A stretch of 64,000 nucleotides of DNA from Bryobacteraceae bacterium (GTDB lineage: Bacteria; Acidobacteriota; Terriglobia; Bryobacterales; Bryobacteraceae), in assembly GCA_035546955.1 (NCBI GenBank), contig DASZVV010000251.1:18353-82352 (forward strand). The letters run 5' to 3'. A program made the translations under genes and the position numbers. Of this stretch, positions 35,201-39,500 are shown piece after piece. The stretch's first letter is position 1. Each line of letters begins with the position of its first letter. Under the pieces are notes generated by a model. The model was not told the DNA's origin. It did not search any database and worked only from the letters and a program-made list of their open reading frames with translations.

Positions 35201-36074
35201 TCATGCGGAACTTCCCGGTGAGGGCACGGCGGAGGTGAGCCACCATCTCCACCTTCAATTCTTCGTAGCGCTTCGCCTTGGCGGCCTGGCGCTTCAACGA
35301 ATTGACCTGCCGGCTGACTTCTTCGAGAATGTCGAAGACGCGGCTCAGGTTCTGCTTGGCGCCTTCCAGTTTCGCCTCCGCCAGCCGGCGGCGCGTCTTG
35401 AATTTAGTGATGCCCGCGGCTTCCTCGATCACCGCGCGCCGGTCCTGCGGGCGGTTGCTCAGAATCTGCCCGATGCGCCCCTGTTCGATGATGGCGTAGC
35501 TTTCCGGCCCCAGTCCGGTGCCCAGGAAGAGATCCTGAATGTCGCGCAGGCGCGCGGGGCGGCCGTTGATCAGATATTCACTCTCCCCCGAGCGGTAAAG
35601 CCGGCGGGTGATGGTGATTTCCCGCTCCTTGGAGGGGGTAGCGGCGGTGACAGGGATGCCGTTCGCGGCGGCCACGCCGTTCTGATGCCCATTCCGGTGA
35701 CCATTTTGATGGCCGTTCTGGCTGCCGTTTTGGTGTTCGTCCGAAGCGGCGCCGTCCTTAAAGAGCGGGGGAACGTCGGAAATCGCATTGCTGTCGGGGA
35801 GGACCGTGGGATCCATCAGCGTCATCGTGACAGACGCCATGCCGAGGGGCTTCTTTTGGCCGGTGCCGGCGAAAATCACGTCCTCCATCCGCACGCCGCG
35901 GAGGTTCTTGGCGGACTGCTCGCCCAGGACCCAACTCATCGCGTCGCTAAGATTGGACTTACCGCAGCCGTTCGGCCCTACGACAGCGGCAATGCCGGAG
36001 CCGTTGAACCGCAGTTCGGTCTTGTCGAAGAAGGATTTGAAGCCGTGGATTTCGACTCGTTTGAGTTTCAGCAA
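32286..36074 (-). CDS. smc: Chromosome segregation protein SMC
   Basis: N-terminal MLKLKRVEIHGFKSF...GPNGCGKSN Walker A, long coiled coils, a hinge, and C-terminal LSGGEKSLTAMALLMAIF...ILDEVDAPLD. TTG start with GGGAGG upstream. Confidence 0.95.
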   Translation of the reverse strand: MLKLKRVEIHGFKSFFDKTELRFNGSGIAAVVGPNGCGKSNLSDAMSWVLGEQSAKNLRGVRMEDVIFAGTGQKKPLGMASVTMTLMDPTVLPDSNAISDVPPLFKDGAASDEHQNGSQNGHQNGHRNGHQNGVAAANGIPVTAATPSKEREITITRRLYRSGESEYLINGRPARLRDIQDLFLGTGLGPESYAIIEQGRIGQILSNRPQDRRAVIEEAAGITKFKTRRRLAEAKLEGAKQNLSRVFDILEEVSRQVNSLKRQAAKAKRYEELKVEMVAHLRRALTGKFRMIEREAAKTALDLSQAQTVFQSLNDRVGSSEKEYAAAQEQCYRTEALLTEARAKLHECRLEEERTRGKLDYQSKQIASMETRLAQGETESATLEQRELQFRQELESALQSVAELEQQVQSGRERLAAKGAGREELQRSLQERNRTLEAGRQQILRLLGEASSLRNQVAKLDEYFAAIERDTTRARQEEASAVSEMQRLEQRKAELSESTSARQLQLASVMEERRSLEENLSVQRSQAAATRKKLEELRTAASGLQARHHSLSEVLSHRAYTAEGVKRLFTAIEKGGADFRPSGVLADFVEVEPSVEKAAEEFLHEELEYVVVNNWQEAGQGIQLLREDVDGRATFLVHPEAGSANHGAGRVEEIRSRAGVTGLLRDHVRLTNGLSDSPAGLLPRLGNCFLAADRDAAQSLATEFPDYYFLLPDGVSYHGHAVSGGKKTGSGPLQLKRELRELTRLMREKQAEVAAETESLNELDAGIAALAERLEAARATQQSQEKEVLALDHEARKLAEEFSRTQSRLSVSRLELDRLNKDRERSLEQRDRSQVLVEEKEQSRAAQEQALEQARAELEVLQADATRLSEEHSALRAEVAGLDERRRAAQSERARKEDQLREISRRREGLASEMARLGVERTRLLSDNVDLGGRAGELKTSIEKLTVEVEQLASSETAFRESVSALDESLKQLRAEAQAAQENRSQTELALVRLQAELKFLDETSRKELGVAAEELASGEEIVPDEVGLEESEAKYQEVRARIEALGAVNPDALQEFQEAQQRYDFLNAQRQDLLDSIRDTEKAIQEIDVETRKRFAEAFEAININFREMFTTLFSGGAAEMRLTDELNVNESGIDIVASPPGKKLQNVLLLSGGEKSLTAMALLMAIFRYQPSPFCILDEVDAPLDDPNIVRLTRLLQDMSSQTQFVVITHSKRTMEVAQALYGVTMQEPGVSKLVSVKFQPAGENGTHATSRRELVGARA
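35676..35738 (-). repeat. Imperfect 12-nt tandem repeats encoding (H/S)(Q/R)NG tetrapeptides inside the SMC head domain
   Basis: The translation reads HQNGSQNGHQNGHRNGHQNG. It sits within a low-complexity insertion (about aa 89-150) between conserved SMC head blocks. Confidence 0.6.
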
Positions 36075-36245
36075 TGGAACATCGTCCTCCCTAATTCTTA
36101 TTCTCGGGGGATGACATCATCGTAGTCGGAACGGGTTCGAAAGTAAAGCAGATGAACCCCTAAATTTAGACATCATTTTGCAAGCCCTACTAAATATAGT
36201 AGTGTGTGCGGGGTAGCGGCGCCATTTTCCGCCAGCGGAGGCGGG

Positions 36246-36274
36246 CCTCGGACGCGGCCGGACCGCGGCCGAGG
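36246..36274. other. GC-rich extended hairpin in the smc / DAHP-synthase divergent intergenic region
   Basis: CCTCGG-A-CGCGG-(CCGGA)-CCGCG-G-CCGAGG. The outer pairs GCGG (36235-36238) / CCGC (36277-36280) and GTGTGC (36204-36209) / GCACAC (36290-36295) could extend it. Confidence 0.5.
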
Positions 36275-36312
36275 ATCCGCAGCGGGGATGCACACCACCA
36301 CGAGGTAGGGAC

Positions 36313-36341
36313 TTGCATCGGCTTTTCGAGATATCTATACT
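36313..36341 (+). promoter_or_regulatory. Sigma70-like promoter TTGCAT-17 bp-TATACT
   Basis: TTGCAT at 36313-36318 and TATACT at 36336-36341 with an exact 17-bp spacer. The leader ORF ATG lies 8 nt downstream of the -10 element. Confidence 0.5.
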
Positions 36342-36349
36342 AAAACTTC

Positions 36350-36403
36350 ATGCGTTCCGCCTATTGCAATTCCTTTCGATTTTGGTTCTGGTTTAGCACC
36401 TGA
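36350..36403 (+). CDS. Candidate aromatic-rich leader peptide MRSAYCNSFRFWFWFST (17 codons)
   Basis: ATG at 36350 and TGA at 36401-36403. Seven of 17 residues are Y, F or W, including the run F-R-F-W-F-W-F. It lies between a promoter and an intrinsic terminator, upstream of the DAHP synthase gene. It is too short for the ORF track. Confidence 0.55.
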   Translation: MRSAYCNSFRFWFWFST

Positions 36404-36449
36404 ATCGAGACGGGTGGCGTTGGCGCGATTTTAGATTTGGAAGTAAGCG

Positions 36450-36480
36450 ACCCACTCGAAAGAGTGGGTTTTTTGTTGTT
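36450..36480 (+). terminator. Intrinsic terminator (attenuator) 26 nt upstream of the DAHP synthase start
   Basis: ACCCACTC (36450-36457), a GAAA loop and GAGTGGGT (36462-36469) form a perfect 8-bp stem, followed by TTTTTGTTGTT. Confidence 0.75.
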
Positions 36481-36506
36481 CAGTCAGCCTTTTCAGGAAG
36501 AAAAAA

Positions 36507-37544
36507 ATGATCATCTCGATGAAGCTACAGTCGACGCGGCAGGAAATTGACCAGGTATGCGAGAGAATTCGCGAGTTTGGCTATAAGGTTCACTCCATTG
36601 AGGGAGAGGAGCGGGTCGTCATCGGCGTAGTGGGTATGGGCGATGTGACGGCGTGTCTCGAATCGGTGGAAGCGATGCCTCAAGTGGAGAAAGCGATGCG
36701 CATTTCCGCGCCGTACAAATTTGTGAGCAAGGAATTCAGACCGCACAAGTCGCAGATCCGGGCGAACGGGGTCGAGATCGGCGGCGACGAGTTTATCGTC
36801 ATGGCGGGTCCGTGCTCGGTGGAGAGCGAAAAGCAGATTATGCAGGCCGCCGAGGGCGTGGCGCGCTCGGGCGCCAAGTTCCTGCGCGGCGGAGCGTTCA
36901 AGCCGCGCACTTCGCCTTACGATTTTCAGGGCCTCGAAGAAGAGGGGCTGAAGCTGATGGCCAAGGCCAAGGCCGCGACCGGGTTGGGAATTGTCACGGA
37001 AGTGATGAGCGACCGCGACGTGGATCTGGTGGCCGGATACGCCGATATTCTGCAAATCGGTGCACGCAACATGCAGAACTTTGCGCTCTTGAAGACGTTG
37101 GGGCGCTGCGGCCGGCCGGTGCTGTTGAAGCGCGGCATGAGCTCGACCATTAAAGAACTGCTGATGTCCGCCGAGTATGTCGTGGCGCACGGCAATCCGG
37201 ACGTTATTCTCTGCGAGCGCGGTATTCGCACGTTTGAAACCGCGACCCGCAACACTTGCGACATCACGGCGGTGGCGGTGCTGAACGAGCTGACGCATCT
37301 CCCGGTGATCCTTGACCCCAGCCACGCGACCGGGAAGCGTAGCTTGGTTCCGGCGCTGTCACGCGCGGGCGTGGCGATTGGCGCCGATGGTCTGATTGTC
37401 GAAGTGCACCCGGCGCCCGAAAAGGCAGTCAGCGACGGCGCGCAATCGCTCGACCTGGCGCGTTTTCATACCATGATGGAAGAGTTGAAGCCCTACGTGG
37501 CGCTGTGGAGCACGGCTCGGGCAAGCGAGCTCGCGGCAGTGTAA
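36507..37544 (+). CDS. aroF: 3-deoxy-7-phosphoheptulonate (DAHP) synthase, type I-beta with N-terminal ferredoxin-like regulatory domain
   Basis: [47 protein letters not shown] and ILDPSHATG. An extra domain of about 70 aa at the N-terminus resembles that of the Thermotoga-type enzyme. AGGAAG Shine-Dalgarno. Confidence 0.93.
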
Positions 37545-37557
37545 TCATTAACTAACG

Positions 37558-38520
37558 TTGCATCGCTTCCGCTTCCATCCCTGGCATCTCGCCACCGGGC
37601 TCGTTCTGGTGTGCGTTGTCATTTTGGGGGTGACGTACTGGCTGCAGTTCAACTCCGGGACATCGGCGGGAGAACTGGCCGGCTTTTTACCGGAAGAGAA
37701 TGCAACGCTCCTTTATATCGATGTAGCGTCGTTGCGGGCGGGCGGGTTTCTGGATTTGTTTTCCGGATCGCCCGCCGCGCGCGACCCCGACTATCAGCAA
37801 TTCGTTTCGCGCACGCAGTTCGACTACACCACCGATCTCGACGCGCTGGCTGCGTCCTTTCGCGGGCGCGAGCGATTTCTGGTGCTGCGCGGCCGGTTCA
37901 ACTGGCAGGCGTTGATCTCGTATGTCAACCGGCAGGGCGGGAGTTGCGGCAAAAGCTTCTGCCAGCTCGAGGGCAGCGTCCCTGACCGGAGGATTTCGTT
38001 TTATCCGCTGCGCCGGGATCTAATGGCGCTGGCGGTGAGCCCGGACCCTTTGGCTGCCTACCAGATCCGAAAAGGCGCCCAGGCGGCGCTGGCGATGTTT
38101 CCCCGGGAACCGGCCTGGCTGATCATTCCATCAACTGCGCTCCAGGGGACCGACGCCGTGCCGGAGCGGGCCCGCCCGTTCGTCGAAGCACTACGCGGAG
38201 CGCAGCAGATTGAATTCACGGTCAGCGCGGTTCAGAAGGATCTGCGGCTTTCGGCGTCGATCCGCTGTGACAGTCCCGCGTCGGCCTCCCAGATCGCGAT
38301 GGAAATGGTGAGCGCGCAAGCCTCCCTGCGCGACTTGATGCTGAGGCAGCATCTTCAACCGGGGCCGGCCGATCTCGCGGGTATTTTACTGAACGGATCG
38401 ATCCGCGACGAAGGGAAGCGCGTGGTGGGCCGCTGGCCGGTGCCTCACGAATTTCTGGCCGCCGTCGCATCGGCAACGCCAAGTGAGTCCGTCGATCCGA
38501 TGAACACCCCCAGCCGATGA
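37558..38520 (+). CDS. Hypothetical membrane-anchored protein
   Basis: One N-terminal TM helix and no recognised motif. TTG start per the track. The stop overlaps the next gene's ATG (ATGA at 38517-38520). Confidence 0.6.
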   Translation: MHRFRFHPWHLATGLVLVCVVILGVTYWLQFNSGTSAGELAGFLPEENATLLYIDVASLRAGGFLDLFSGSPAARDPDYQQFVSRTQFDYTTDLDALAASFRGRERFLVLRGRFNWQALISYVNRQGGSCGKSFCQLEGSVPDRRISFYPLRRDLMALAVSPDPLAAYQIRKGAQAALAMFPREPAWLIIPSTALQGTDAVPERARPFVEALRGAQQIEFTVSAVQKDLRLSASIRCDSPASASQIAMEMVSAQASLRDLMLRQHLQPGPADLAGILLNGSIRDEGKRVVGRWPVPHEFLAAVASATPSESVDPMNTPSR

Positions 38521-39500
38521 GCACGCGAAAAGGTGTCCTGGTGGCGGGGAACCTGGTGCTGGACACCGTGGTACTGCCCGTTCCGGATTCGCCGCCGTGG
38601 AATACCAGCTACTGGGTGGACGCGATTGAGCACCACCTGGGCGGAAACGGCGCAAACACCTCGCACGCCATCGCCAAACTGGGAGTGCCGGCGCGCGCGC
38701 TCGGATACGTGGGTGAGGACCCTGCGGGAGACCGGGTGCTGGCGATTCTTCAAGGCGCGGGCGTGGATACGAGAGCGGTGGAGCGAGTGGACTTGCCGAC
38801 CGCGGCGACCGTCGCCCTGGTAAGGGAAGACGGCGCGCGCTGCTTTCTCCATTGCCCTGGAGCAAGCACAAAGGCGTTCCAGCAGGCTCCCGCGATCACG
38901 GCCGCGCTGGCGGAAGGGTGCGGATTCTTTCATCTGGCGAATCCATTCGGAGTACCCGGGCTACGCTCGAACGCGCCGGAGATTTTGCGGCAGGCGCGGG
39001 CGGCCGGGCTGTGCACATCCATCGATGCCGGGTGGGATTCGCGCGGAGAGTGGATGAAAGTGTTCGGCCCGTGCCTCCCGGCGGCCGATGTTGTGTTCGT
39101 CAACGCCGAGGAGGCGCGGCTACTCACCGGGTTGGACGATCCAAACGCGGCAGCGCGAGCCCTGCGGGCAGGTGGGGCGGGCTGCATTGTGCTGAAGCTG
39201 GGGGCACGCGGCTGCTCGGTTCACGCGGAGGGCGGGGAGTGGACGGCGGCCGGCTTTCCGGTAAAGGCCGTGGACACCACCGGAGCGGGCGACTGTTTCG
39301 CTGGAGGATTTATCGCCGCGCTGGCGCGAGGCTACACTCTCCCCGAAGCGGCGCGTTTTGCCAACGCCGTGGGCGCGCTCAGCGTGGGTAAGGCGGGCAG
39401 CACCGCCGGGCTGCTTTCGTTCGAGGGGACGCTCGCGTGGATGGGAGGCGGTTCAGCGGCGCTGCCGGAACGAATCGATGGAGGGCGATCCGGCGCCTGA
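38517..39500 (+). CDS. PfkB-family carbohydrate kinase
   Basis: N-terminal GNLVLDTV...GGNGANT and the C-terminal ATP/anion-hole motif DTTGAGDCFAGGFIAAL. Confidence 0.85.
   Translation: MSTRKGVLVAGNLVLDTVVLPVPDSPPWNTSYWVDAIEHHLGGNGANTSHAIAKLGVPARALGYVGEDPAGDRVLAILQGAGVDTRAVERVDLPTAATVALVREDGARCFLHCPGASTKAFQQAPAITAALAEGCGFFHLANPFGVPGLRSNAPEILRQARAAGLCTSIDAGWDSRGEWMKVFGPCLPAADVVFVNAEEARLLTGLDDPNAAARALRAGGAGCIVLKLGARGCSVHAEGGEWTAAGFPVKAVDTTGAGDCFAGGFIAALARGYTLPEAARFANAVGALSVGKAGSTAGLLSFEGTLAWMGGGSAALPERIDGGRSGA

Follow-up and report, generated by a model that had tools for sequence, protein, structure and literature searches.

In Corynebacterium glutamicum, the DAHP synthase gene aroF is preceded by a leader peptide, aroR, that contains the sequence Phe-Tyr-Phe and responds to phenylalanine (Neshat et al. 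2014, as described in PMC11802643 and PMC4046766). This is the nearest functional precedent for the element described here, which occupies positions 36313-36480 of a 64-kb stretch of DNA from a Bryobacteraceae bacterium of the phylum Acidobacteriota (contig DASZVV010000251.1; the whole stretch is referred to as the window, and positions are counted within it) and lies directly upstream of a DAHP synthase gene. Judging from its sequence, this element is very probably a ribosome-mediated leader-peptide transcription attenuator of that gene. As at aroR-aroF, a short open reading frame (ORF) with aromatic codons lies 5' of the DAHP synthase gene, and the relief of premature termination by ribosome stalling that operates in C. 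glutamicum would, by analogy, operate here as well. Leader peptides of C. glutamicum are often translated without a ribosome-binding site, as is predicted for the acidobacterial leader. However, aroR has a single Phe-Tyr-Phe triplet, whereas the acidobacterial leaders carry 4-10 aromatic residues with tryptophan in nearly all of them, and aroR belongs to Actinomycetota, whereas the present element belongs to Acidobacteriota and precedes a type I-beta enzyme with a ferredoxin-like N-terminal domain. No sequence relationship between the acidobacterial leader and aroR was detected. An earlier reading of the window, made from its letters alone (the sequence-only reading), had proposed attenuation at this site and pointed to a leader-peptide attenuator upstream of aroF in Corynebacterium. 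The precedent is right, being aroR-aroF, and the proposal itself is supported in silico by the comparative tests reported below.

The pheL-pheA and trpL-trpEDCBA attenuators of Escherichia coli follow the same four-segment logic, in which a 2:3 pairing and the 3:4 pairing of an intrinsic terminator exclude each other, and in those leaders and the acidobacterial element alike the regulatory codons lie in or beside segment 1 and the stop codon lies beside segment 2. There is no homology in sequence or structure between them, and whereas pheL and trpL are Shine-Dalgarno-led, sense one amino acid and control a terminal branch, the acidobacterial leader is apparently leaderless, would sense three amino acids and precedes a common-pathway enzyme. 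Leaderless leader peptides are known from Actinobacteria, in the form of the C. glutamicum ilvB leader (Morbach 2000) and trpL1, leuL and ilvL of Streptomyces lividans (PMC8079986), where the transcript begins with the peptide's coding sequence, lacks a ribosome-binding site and continues into a hairpin and a U-run, an arrangement also predicted here. These attenuators belong to another phylum and regulate other genes, and their transcription starts were mapped by RNA-seq, whereas leaderless status is deduced here from the conserved spacing between -10 hexamer and ATG and from the lack of a Shine-Dalgarno sequence. T-box leaders, which in Firmicutes are reported to precede genes of aromatic biosynthesis (Panina et al. 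2003, as cited in PMC1262725), are a functional analogue in that they control a terminator and antiterminator by the charging of transfer RNA (tRNA). However, a T-box recognises uncharged tRNA by direct binding and does not include a translated ORF, whereas the acidobacterial element has a leader that is predicted to be translated.

Rfam gave no usable match at a permissive threshold (E<=10, positions 35500-37200) or at gathering thresholds over the whole window. Phe_leader (RF01859) reached 17.7 bits (E = 8.3) at 36362-36477, compared with a gathering score of 55, and Trp_leader (RF00513) and T-box (RF00230) were not matched within 35500-37200 at E<=10, where the other matches were chance matches to the terminator only. 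In the full-text literature we found no leader-peptide attenuator described in Acidobacteria or Solibacter, an earlier in-silico mention being possible (Lopatovskaya et al. 2010), and a 2010 survey noted that of the attenuators predicted in Acidobacteria almost none had an assigned function. Sequence comparison shows a conserved family that is new, although the kind of regulator is familiar, and as the mechanism is textbook the conceptual advance is modest. Acidobacteriota are abundant in soil and their gene regulation is hardly characterised; the element is a clear, conserved and testable regulatory RNA candidate at the committed step of aromatic amino-acid synthesis, where one peptide would sense all three end products on top of an allosterically regulated enzyme, and it would imply both transcription-translation coupling and leaderless initiation in this phylum.

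Leader ORF, promoter and terminator

The features of the element and of the gene that it precedes are as follows, the 3' arm of the terminator being segment 4.

36313-36318, plus strand: -35-like hexamer TTGCAT, agreeing with the consensus at 3 of 6 positions
36336-36341, plus strand: -10-like hexamer TATACT, separated from TTGCAT by a 17-nucleotide spacer, with the leader ATG 8 nucleotides downstream
36350-36403, plus strand: leader ORF of 17 codons plus stop, MRSAYCNSFRFWFWFST, with the stop codon TGA at 36401-36403
36374-36394, plus strand: regulatory codon cluster TTT CGA TTT TGG TTC TGG TTT (F R F W F W F)
36358-36390, plus strand: segment 1, the 5' strand of a predicted 1:2 hairpin, overlapping the aromatic codons (from minimum-free-energy folds)
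36405-36423, plus strand: segment 2, predicted to pair with segment 1 or with the terminator 5' arm (from constrained folds and RNAduplex)
36446-36458, plus strand: segment 3, AGCGACCCACTCG, comprising the 5' arm of the terminator and the 4 nucleotides before it, these likewise pairing with segment 2
36449-36480, plus strand: intrinsic terminator, consisting of the hairpin GACCCACTC-GAAA-GAGTGGGTT and a T-run, found by a terminator scan as well
36495-36500, plus strand: Shine-Dalgarno-like AGGAAG of the DAHP synthase gene, read from the sequence
36507-37544, plus strand: DAHP synthase gene, type I-beta, with an N-terminal ferredoxin-like regulatory domain, 345 residues

We searched the enzyme sequence against one genome per GTDB species and against JGI metagenomes, and obtained 38 distinct loci, the window included, whose enzymes share 75-85% protein identity with that of the window. 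The best enzyme matches are titled Bryobacteraceae, Bryobacterales, 'Candidatus Acidoferrum' and Terriglobia, and the window belongs to class Terriglobia of the Acidobacteriota. One layout is common to the 38 loci, though the spacer sequence cannot be aligned, and the element is thus widespread in Terriglobia and not special to this genome.

In the window, the leader ORF reads ATG CGT TCC GCC TAT TGC AAT TCC TTT CGA TTT TGG TTC TGG TTT AGC ACC TGA, and an earlier start is excluded because of an in-frame TAA at 36341-36343. Seven of its 17 codons specify aromatic residues, as the sequence-only reading had stated. Small ORFs of 10-40 codons number 1516 in the window, and this one has the highest aromatic density among them: 6 aromatics fall within 8 residues, compared with 4 in the runner-up. 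Only 0.3% of dinucleotide shuffles of 36342-36506 (n=5000) yield a comparably aromatic ORF. Chance is no explanation for the occurrence of this ORF together with the hairpin in the window.

An intact leader ORF of 14-27 codons is found at the same position in all 38 loci, so that the short ORF with clustered aromatic codons is indeed a conserved feature of related genomes. Phenylalanine (F), tryptophan (W) and tyrosine (Y) account for 33.9% (243/717) of leader codons. The corresponding figures are 4.9% for the DAHP synthase genes that follow these leaders, 10.5% as predicted by base composition, and 7.4% and 5.3% when the leader DNA is read in its two remaining frames. All three aromatic amino acids are present in 36 of the 38 leaders, which suits a common-pathway enzyme that feeds all three branches. 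At homologous positions F, Y and W interchange, and the N- and C-termini of the peptide are variable. The closest locus, L081, has the leader MQHQPYNSFRFWFWFST, and over the last 11 leader codons it differs from the window by 3 synonymous and 0 non-synonymous changes.

Codon usage in the leaders also departs from that of the DAHP synthase genes. TTT makes up 77% of phenylalanine codons in the leaders versus 31% in the genes, TAT 52% versus 22% of tyrosine codons, and CGA 42% versus 7% of arginine codons. An R[F/Y] pair occurs within the cluster in 35 of the 38 leaders, 28 times as the hexamer CGATTT. This hexamer encodes Arg-Phe with two codons that are both rare in these GC-rich genomes; its conservation extends to the nucleotides themselves, and in the window it lies in the region of 36374-36379. 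No base-pairing partner for CGATTT common to all subgroups was found; pairing with AATCG as the reason for its retention holds in the subgroup of the window only and was dropped as a general explanation.

The frequency of the R[F/Y] pair, of CGATTT and of CGA, and the conservation of R-F with no pairing partner across all subgroups, are features that an arrest peptide could display, in which an aromatic-Arg-Phe-Trp core would stall the ribosome through the exit tunnel, perhaps together with a free aromatic amino acid, as in TnaC. Such an arrangement would be illogical in that a biosynthetic enzyme would be induced by its own product. Moreover, the R-F core is surrounded by freely variable residues, the three aromatic amino acids can stand in for each other, and a second leader family in Terriglobales, described below, has a different peptide with the same architecture. 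No known arrest motif was identified, although none was tested for. Rare codons, for their part, are a known means of sensitising classical attenuators, which counts against the arrest peptide, and we regard this explanation as most improbable.

The promoter proposed by the sequence-only reading, TTGCAT and TATACT with a spacer of 17 at 36313-36341, has the hexamers and spacing that were claimed for it, and it gains support because the hexamers are conserved in orthologues. Among 37 orthologous loci with sequence in that region, a TAnAcT-type hexamer is located 6-12 nucleotides (median 9) 5' of the leader start codon in 36, and TTGnnn is found 16-18 nucleotides 5' of the -10 hexamer in most. 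A Shine-Dalgarno-like motif precedes none of the 38 leaders, compared with all 38 of the DAHP synthase genes. Given the spacing of the -10 hexamer from the ATG and the lack of a Shine-Dalgarno motif, the leader transcript is probably leaderless or nearly so, in agreement with what had been suggested from the window alone. In an in-silico survey, approximately 13% of acidobacterial genes were predicted to be leaderless.

The terminator consists of a perfect 8-bp core, ACCCACTC-GAAA-GAGTGGGT, at 36450-36469, followed by TTTTTGTTGTT to 36480, and the end of the T-run is separated from the DAHP synthase ATG by 26 nucleotides, in both respects as first read. The hairpin motif is present in a single copy in the window, where 0 are expected, and each of 36 loci likewise has one copy only, which is invariably on the strand of the gene and upstream of DAHP synthase. 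A generic repeated terminator or an element resembling repetitive extragenic palindromic (REP) sequences is thereby ruled out. The core of the terminator, CCCACTC/GAGTGGG, hardly changes between loci, and covariation (A-U, G-C, C-G) is seen at the outer pairs. In 15 sequences the terminator is 97% paired with covariation above that of all 500 shuffles, and across 39 sequences it is 98.9% paired with seven inner stem pairs almost invariant. It appears in the minimum-free-energy fold of at least 34 of the 38 loci. The distance from leader ATG to hairpin end is 109-136 nucleotides and that from hairpin end to enzyme ATG is 21-160 nucleotides. Since the hairpin ends only 21-30 nucleotides from the enzyme ATG in many loci, there is no room for a separate promoter and read-through is required. 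In the window, smc is divergent from 36074, and therefore no upstream gene could use the terminator at 36449-36480.

We built a covariance model, R1, from 15 sequences of the subgroup to which the window belongs; its E-values are rough by construction. R1 recovers all 23 members that were left out of the building, with E-values of 1e-15 to 3e-6, and also matches L016 and the truncated locus L099, with weak matches in L026 and L113. In the window it gives a single match, at 36350-36478, and over 0.96 Mb of fetched DNA it finds nothing significant away from the region upstream of DAHP synthase, the extra matches being weak and palindrome-echo matches near the same site. The model could serve directly to found a new Rfam family and to improve the annotation of soil metagenomes.

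These distances and the distribution of the element bear on whether promoter, small ORF and terminator might constitute an independent gene for a micropeptide or small RNA with a function in trans, with DAHP synthase transcribed separately and the aromatic residues serving the function of the peptide. The element does have its own promoter-like hexamers and its own terminator, and the R-F motif and CGATTT are conserved beyond what codon counting needs. Attenuator-derived small RNAs and trans-acting leader peptides are reported from Sinorhizobium. However, where the hairpin ends 21-30 nucleotides from the enzyme ATG the gene is reachable by read-through only, the element is always directly 5' of DAHP synthase and nowhere else in the 0.96 Mb, and a peptide whose length and termini vary and whose aromatic residues interchange is poorly suited to such a function. 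In addition, the conserved antiterminator described below would have no role. We therefore give a stand-alone gene a very slight chance, with the proviso that a function in trans could coexist with attenuation and is not a strict alternative to it.

Alternative RNA pairings and proposed mechanism

The unconstrained fold of 36343-36485 has a predicted free energy of -45.8 kcal/mol (z = -2.2) and contains the terminator (3:4) together with a long 1:2 hairpin, in which 36358-90 (segment 1) pairs with 36394-36427 (the stop region and beyond). An inverted repeat at 36376-89 / 36395-408 is consistent with the 1:2 region. This hairpin is an addition to the sequence-only reading, in which it was undescribed. 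Segment 2 pairs back into the ORF, mostly with codons 3-10, in 33 of 38 minimum-free-energy folds, and RNAalifold predicts a CCAGC:GTTGG helix between codons 5-7 and segment 2.

A stalled ribosome was modelled by masking its footprint at an aromatic codon and cutting the RNA before the terminator 3' arm. In the window, segment 2 then pairs with the terminator 5' arm and a few nucleotides upstream of it at -18.4 kcal/mol, and with the ribosome placed at the stop codon the terminator alone remains. The terminator and antiterminator thus behave in these folds as the mutually exclusive structures that had been proposed. Under the same masking and cutting, the antiterminator forms in all 38 loci. 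For the window, RNAduplex gives the register CGGGUGG.GUUG with CGAC-CCACUCG at -15.8 kcal/mol (z = -2.5). Compared with dinucleotide-shuffled spacers, the 2:3 duplex energy has a mean z of -2.95 over the loci, with p<=0.05 in 31/38 and p<=0.01 in 20/38. Across 15 aligned sequences the 2:3 helix of 11 pairs is 92% paired, compared with 31-46% in slid registers. The sequence-only reading had placed a 7-bp antiterminator at 36411-36417/36452-36458; this is the core of the conserved 2:3 helix, but the predicted helix extends to about 11 pairs, reaching nucleotides upstream of the terminator stem through GTTGG with CCAAC.

Segment 2 takes the forms GAGTGGCGTTGG, GCGAGGGGCG and GAGTGGG across the family, that of the window aligning with GAGTGGCGTTGG. 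The best single event of coordinated change is seen in L017, where segments 2, 3 and 4 have changed together to GAGCGG / CCGCTC / GAGCGG. In all 38 loci segment 2 begins between -23 and +9 nucleotides relative to the first base of the stop codon, which bears out the placement of the stop beside segment 2 that had been noted in the window. The ORF of one subgroup reads through segment 2 (…R-G-A…), and the UAG of another directly abuts it. The aromatic cluster of the window ends >12 nucleotides upstream of segment 2. An alignment of 19 mixed leaders with MAFFT and RNAalifold recovered the terminator alone, because the 1:2 and 2:3 strands cannot be aligned across subgroups, and we therefore used constrained folds of each sequence and alignment within a single subgroup.

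From this anatomy, its conservation and the alternative pairings, we infer the start of transcription, the stalling of the ribosome, the site of termination and the physiological response as follows. Transcription would start at or a few nucleotides from the leader AUG (36350), and translation would proceed without a Shine-Dalgarno sequence. When Phe-, Trp- and Tyr-tRNAs are charged, the ribosome would reach the UGA at 36401 and cover the start of segment 2 (36405-36423), so that segment 3 would pair with segment 4 and RNA polymerase would stop at the U-run at 36470-36480, giving a terminated transcript of roughly 125-130 nucleotides. A shortage of any one of these charged tRNAs would make the ribosome stall in F-R-F-W-F-W-F (36374-36394), breaking the 1:2 hairpin and freeing segment 2, which would pair with 36446-36458 before the terminator 3' arm is made and so permit read-through. 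Without translation, the 1:2 hairpin and the terminator would both form and transcription would stop. The N-terminal domain of the enzyme would add allosteric feedback on top of attenuation.

Points against attenuation and variation among loci

A number of observations weigh against an attenuator. In the window, TTGCAT and TATACT match 8 of 12 consensus positions and are absent from a consensus promoter scan. When the stall mask is applied to RNA that has not been cut, many loci, that of the window among them, still have the terminator as their most stable structure, and antitermination must therefore be kinetic, as it is in the E. coli trp leader. A covariation check had been suggested along with the sequence-only reading, and the outer pairs of the terminator do covary, but covariation in the 2:3 helix is weak, its 2 double changes being reached by 60-109 of 500 shuffles and not significant. 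It is thin because both strands are conserved, and the antiterminator is supported by conserved complementarity rather than by covariation. Segment 2 of the window starts 4-9 nucleotides past the first base of the stop codon, and a terminating ribosome would therefore cover it only partly. The 1:2 region is no more stable than its dinucleotide shuffles (mean z = -0.76, with 7/38 below -2), so that the 1:2 helix is present in the predicted folds, but not proven. Furthermore, the loci are phylogenetically related, so the counts given above are not counts of independent events.

Two groups of loci add to these points. Three loci, at L014:846-864, at L016:3950-3967 and in L086 (approximately 120 nucleotides 5' of the gene ATG at 648), have a CCCACTC...G(A/G)G(T/G)GGG hairpin and T-run 10-15 nucleotides after a TAnACT hexamer, with neither an aromatic leader ORF nor segment 2. 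It is not easy to see how the gene would be expressed past a terminator that lies so close to the promoter and has no visible antiterminator. A leaderless ORF reading through the hairpin (MPT..EWVF in L014 and L016) was considered and dropped, as L086 has no start codon in frame. Five close orthologues with 77-83% identity (L083, L087, L090, L095 and L103) have no leader ORF or terminator within 300 nucleotides upstream, which implies repeated loss or replacement of the element in this clade. Neither the hairpin-only nor the element-free loci contradict attenuation in the others.

The retention of the hairpin just past the -10-like hexamer in L014, L016 and L086, together with the near-invariance of the inner stem, could point to a terminator run by a trans-acting RNA-binding protein that recognises CCCACTC...GAGTGGG, or to a riboswitch-like fold, the ORF being incidental. 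Either would leave unexplained the frame-specific aromatic codons, the intact ORF in every one of the 38 loci and the position of the stop at segment 2, while the invariance of the stem is expected in any case given that segment 3 must pair with both segments 2 and 4. No Rfam family, T-box and riboswitches included, matched at a useful score, and a riboswitch would have no candidate ligand pocket, as the sequence that separates segments 2 and 3 lacks conservation. Control of this kind in place of a translating ribosome is, in our judgment, highly unlikely. Attenuation by a translating ribosome nevertheless does not account for everything: the near-invariance of CGA-UUU and of the hairpin sequence, and the persistence of the hairpin in loci lacking the ORF, as seen in sequence comparison, exceed what the classical model needs. 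A hybrid attenuator is conceivable, in which sensitivity is set by an intrinsic, programmed pause helped by the codons or the peptide, or in which the hairpin is recognised by a further factor; we consider it rather unlikely.

A second leader family, unrelated in sequence to that of the window, precedes the same gene in 12 loci (L028, L033, L036, L051, L120, L123, L128, L136, L142, L152, L155 and L158). Four are derived from genomes titled Terriglobales, Acidobacteriota or 'Candidatus Aquilonibacter', and the other 8 are metagenome contigs grouped with them by the shared leader only. The leader is located 30-62 nucleotides 5' of the gene ATG and encodes the peptide MTRF[T/S]…F…(R)YWF…AAAA…; the terminator is GCCGCGAT…ATCGCGGC, and the alanine codons GCGGCnGCGG would serve as segment 2, the antiterminator strand. 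Aromatic-rich short ORFs with terminator-like hairpins were also seen 5' of I-beta DAHP synthase genes in single loci of other lineages, at L026:3778-3935, in L121, at L113:14-187, and in L055, L139 and L151. L026 and L121 are Syntrophaceae-like; a leader beginning MDSTHIRNFSFWFSTYYFYG.. occurs in a Syntrophaceae metagenome-assembled genome, and one beginning MHTRGYRYYRF.. in Longimicrobiales. Resemblance of this kind suggests that the aromatic leader solution recurs across phyla and, given the unrelated second family and the look-alikes in other phyla, that it arose or was replaced repeatedly.

The DAHP synthase gene and its surroundings

The DAHP synthase matches DAHP_synth_1 (PF00793, E = 8e-81) and, at residues 1-67, DAHP_snth_FXD (PF18152, E = 1e-17), the latter being the N-terminal regulatory domain that the sequence-only reading had assigned to it, and it scores 488 bits against NCBIfam NF006421 (cut-off 335). 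The smc gene starts at 36074 on the minus strand, leaving a divergent gap of 432 bp before the DAHP synthase ATG at 36507. GC content is 0.45-0.47 over 36300-36600 compared with 0.60-0.66 in the flanks, so that both the extent of the gap and its AT-richness agree with the first description. Directly 3' of the DAHP synthase gene, a 320-codon ORF at 37558-38520 on the plus strand has no Pfam or NCBIfam match, and the second gene downstream, at 38517-39500, encodes a pfkB-family sugar kinase. Family searches revealed no link to aromatic metabolism for either gene, and the target of the attenuator would seem to be only the DAHP synthase gene, or else an operon of unclear logic.

Two further sequence features were seen in the divergent gap. 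One, located at 36246-36274 in the stretch that separates the start of smc from the promoter of the leader, is an inverted repeat rich in GC, CCTCGGACGCGG / CCGCGGCCGAGG, with 12-nucleotide arms that are 92% complementary, a 5-nucleotide loop, and no T-run after it on either strand. On the other side of the leader, the terminator T-run TTTTTTGTT (36469-36477) is 89% complementary to the A-rich AAGAAAAAA (36498-36506), 20 nucleotides away, which overlaps the Shine-Dalgarno region just 5' of the DAHP synthase ATG; in read-through transcripts, pairing between the two could affect translation initiation.

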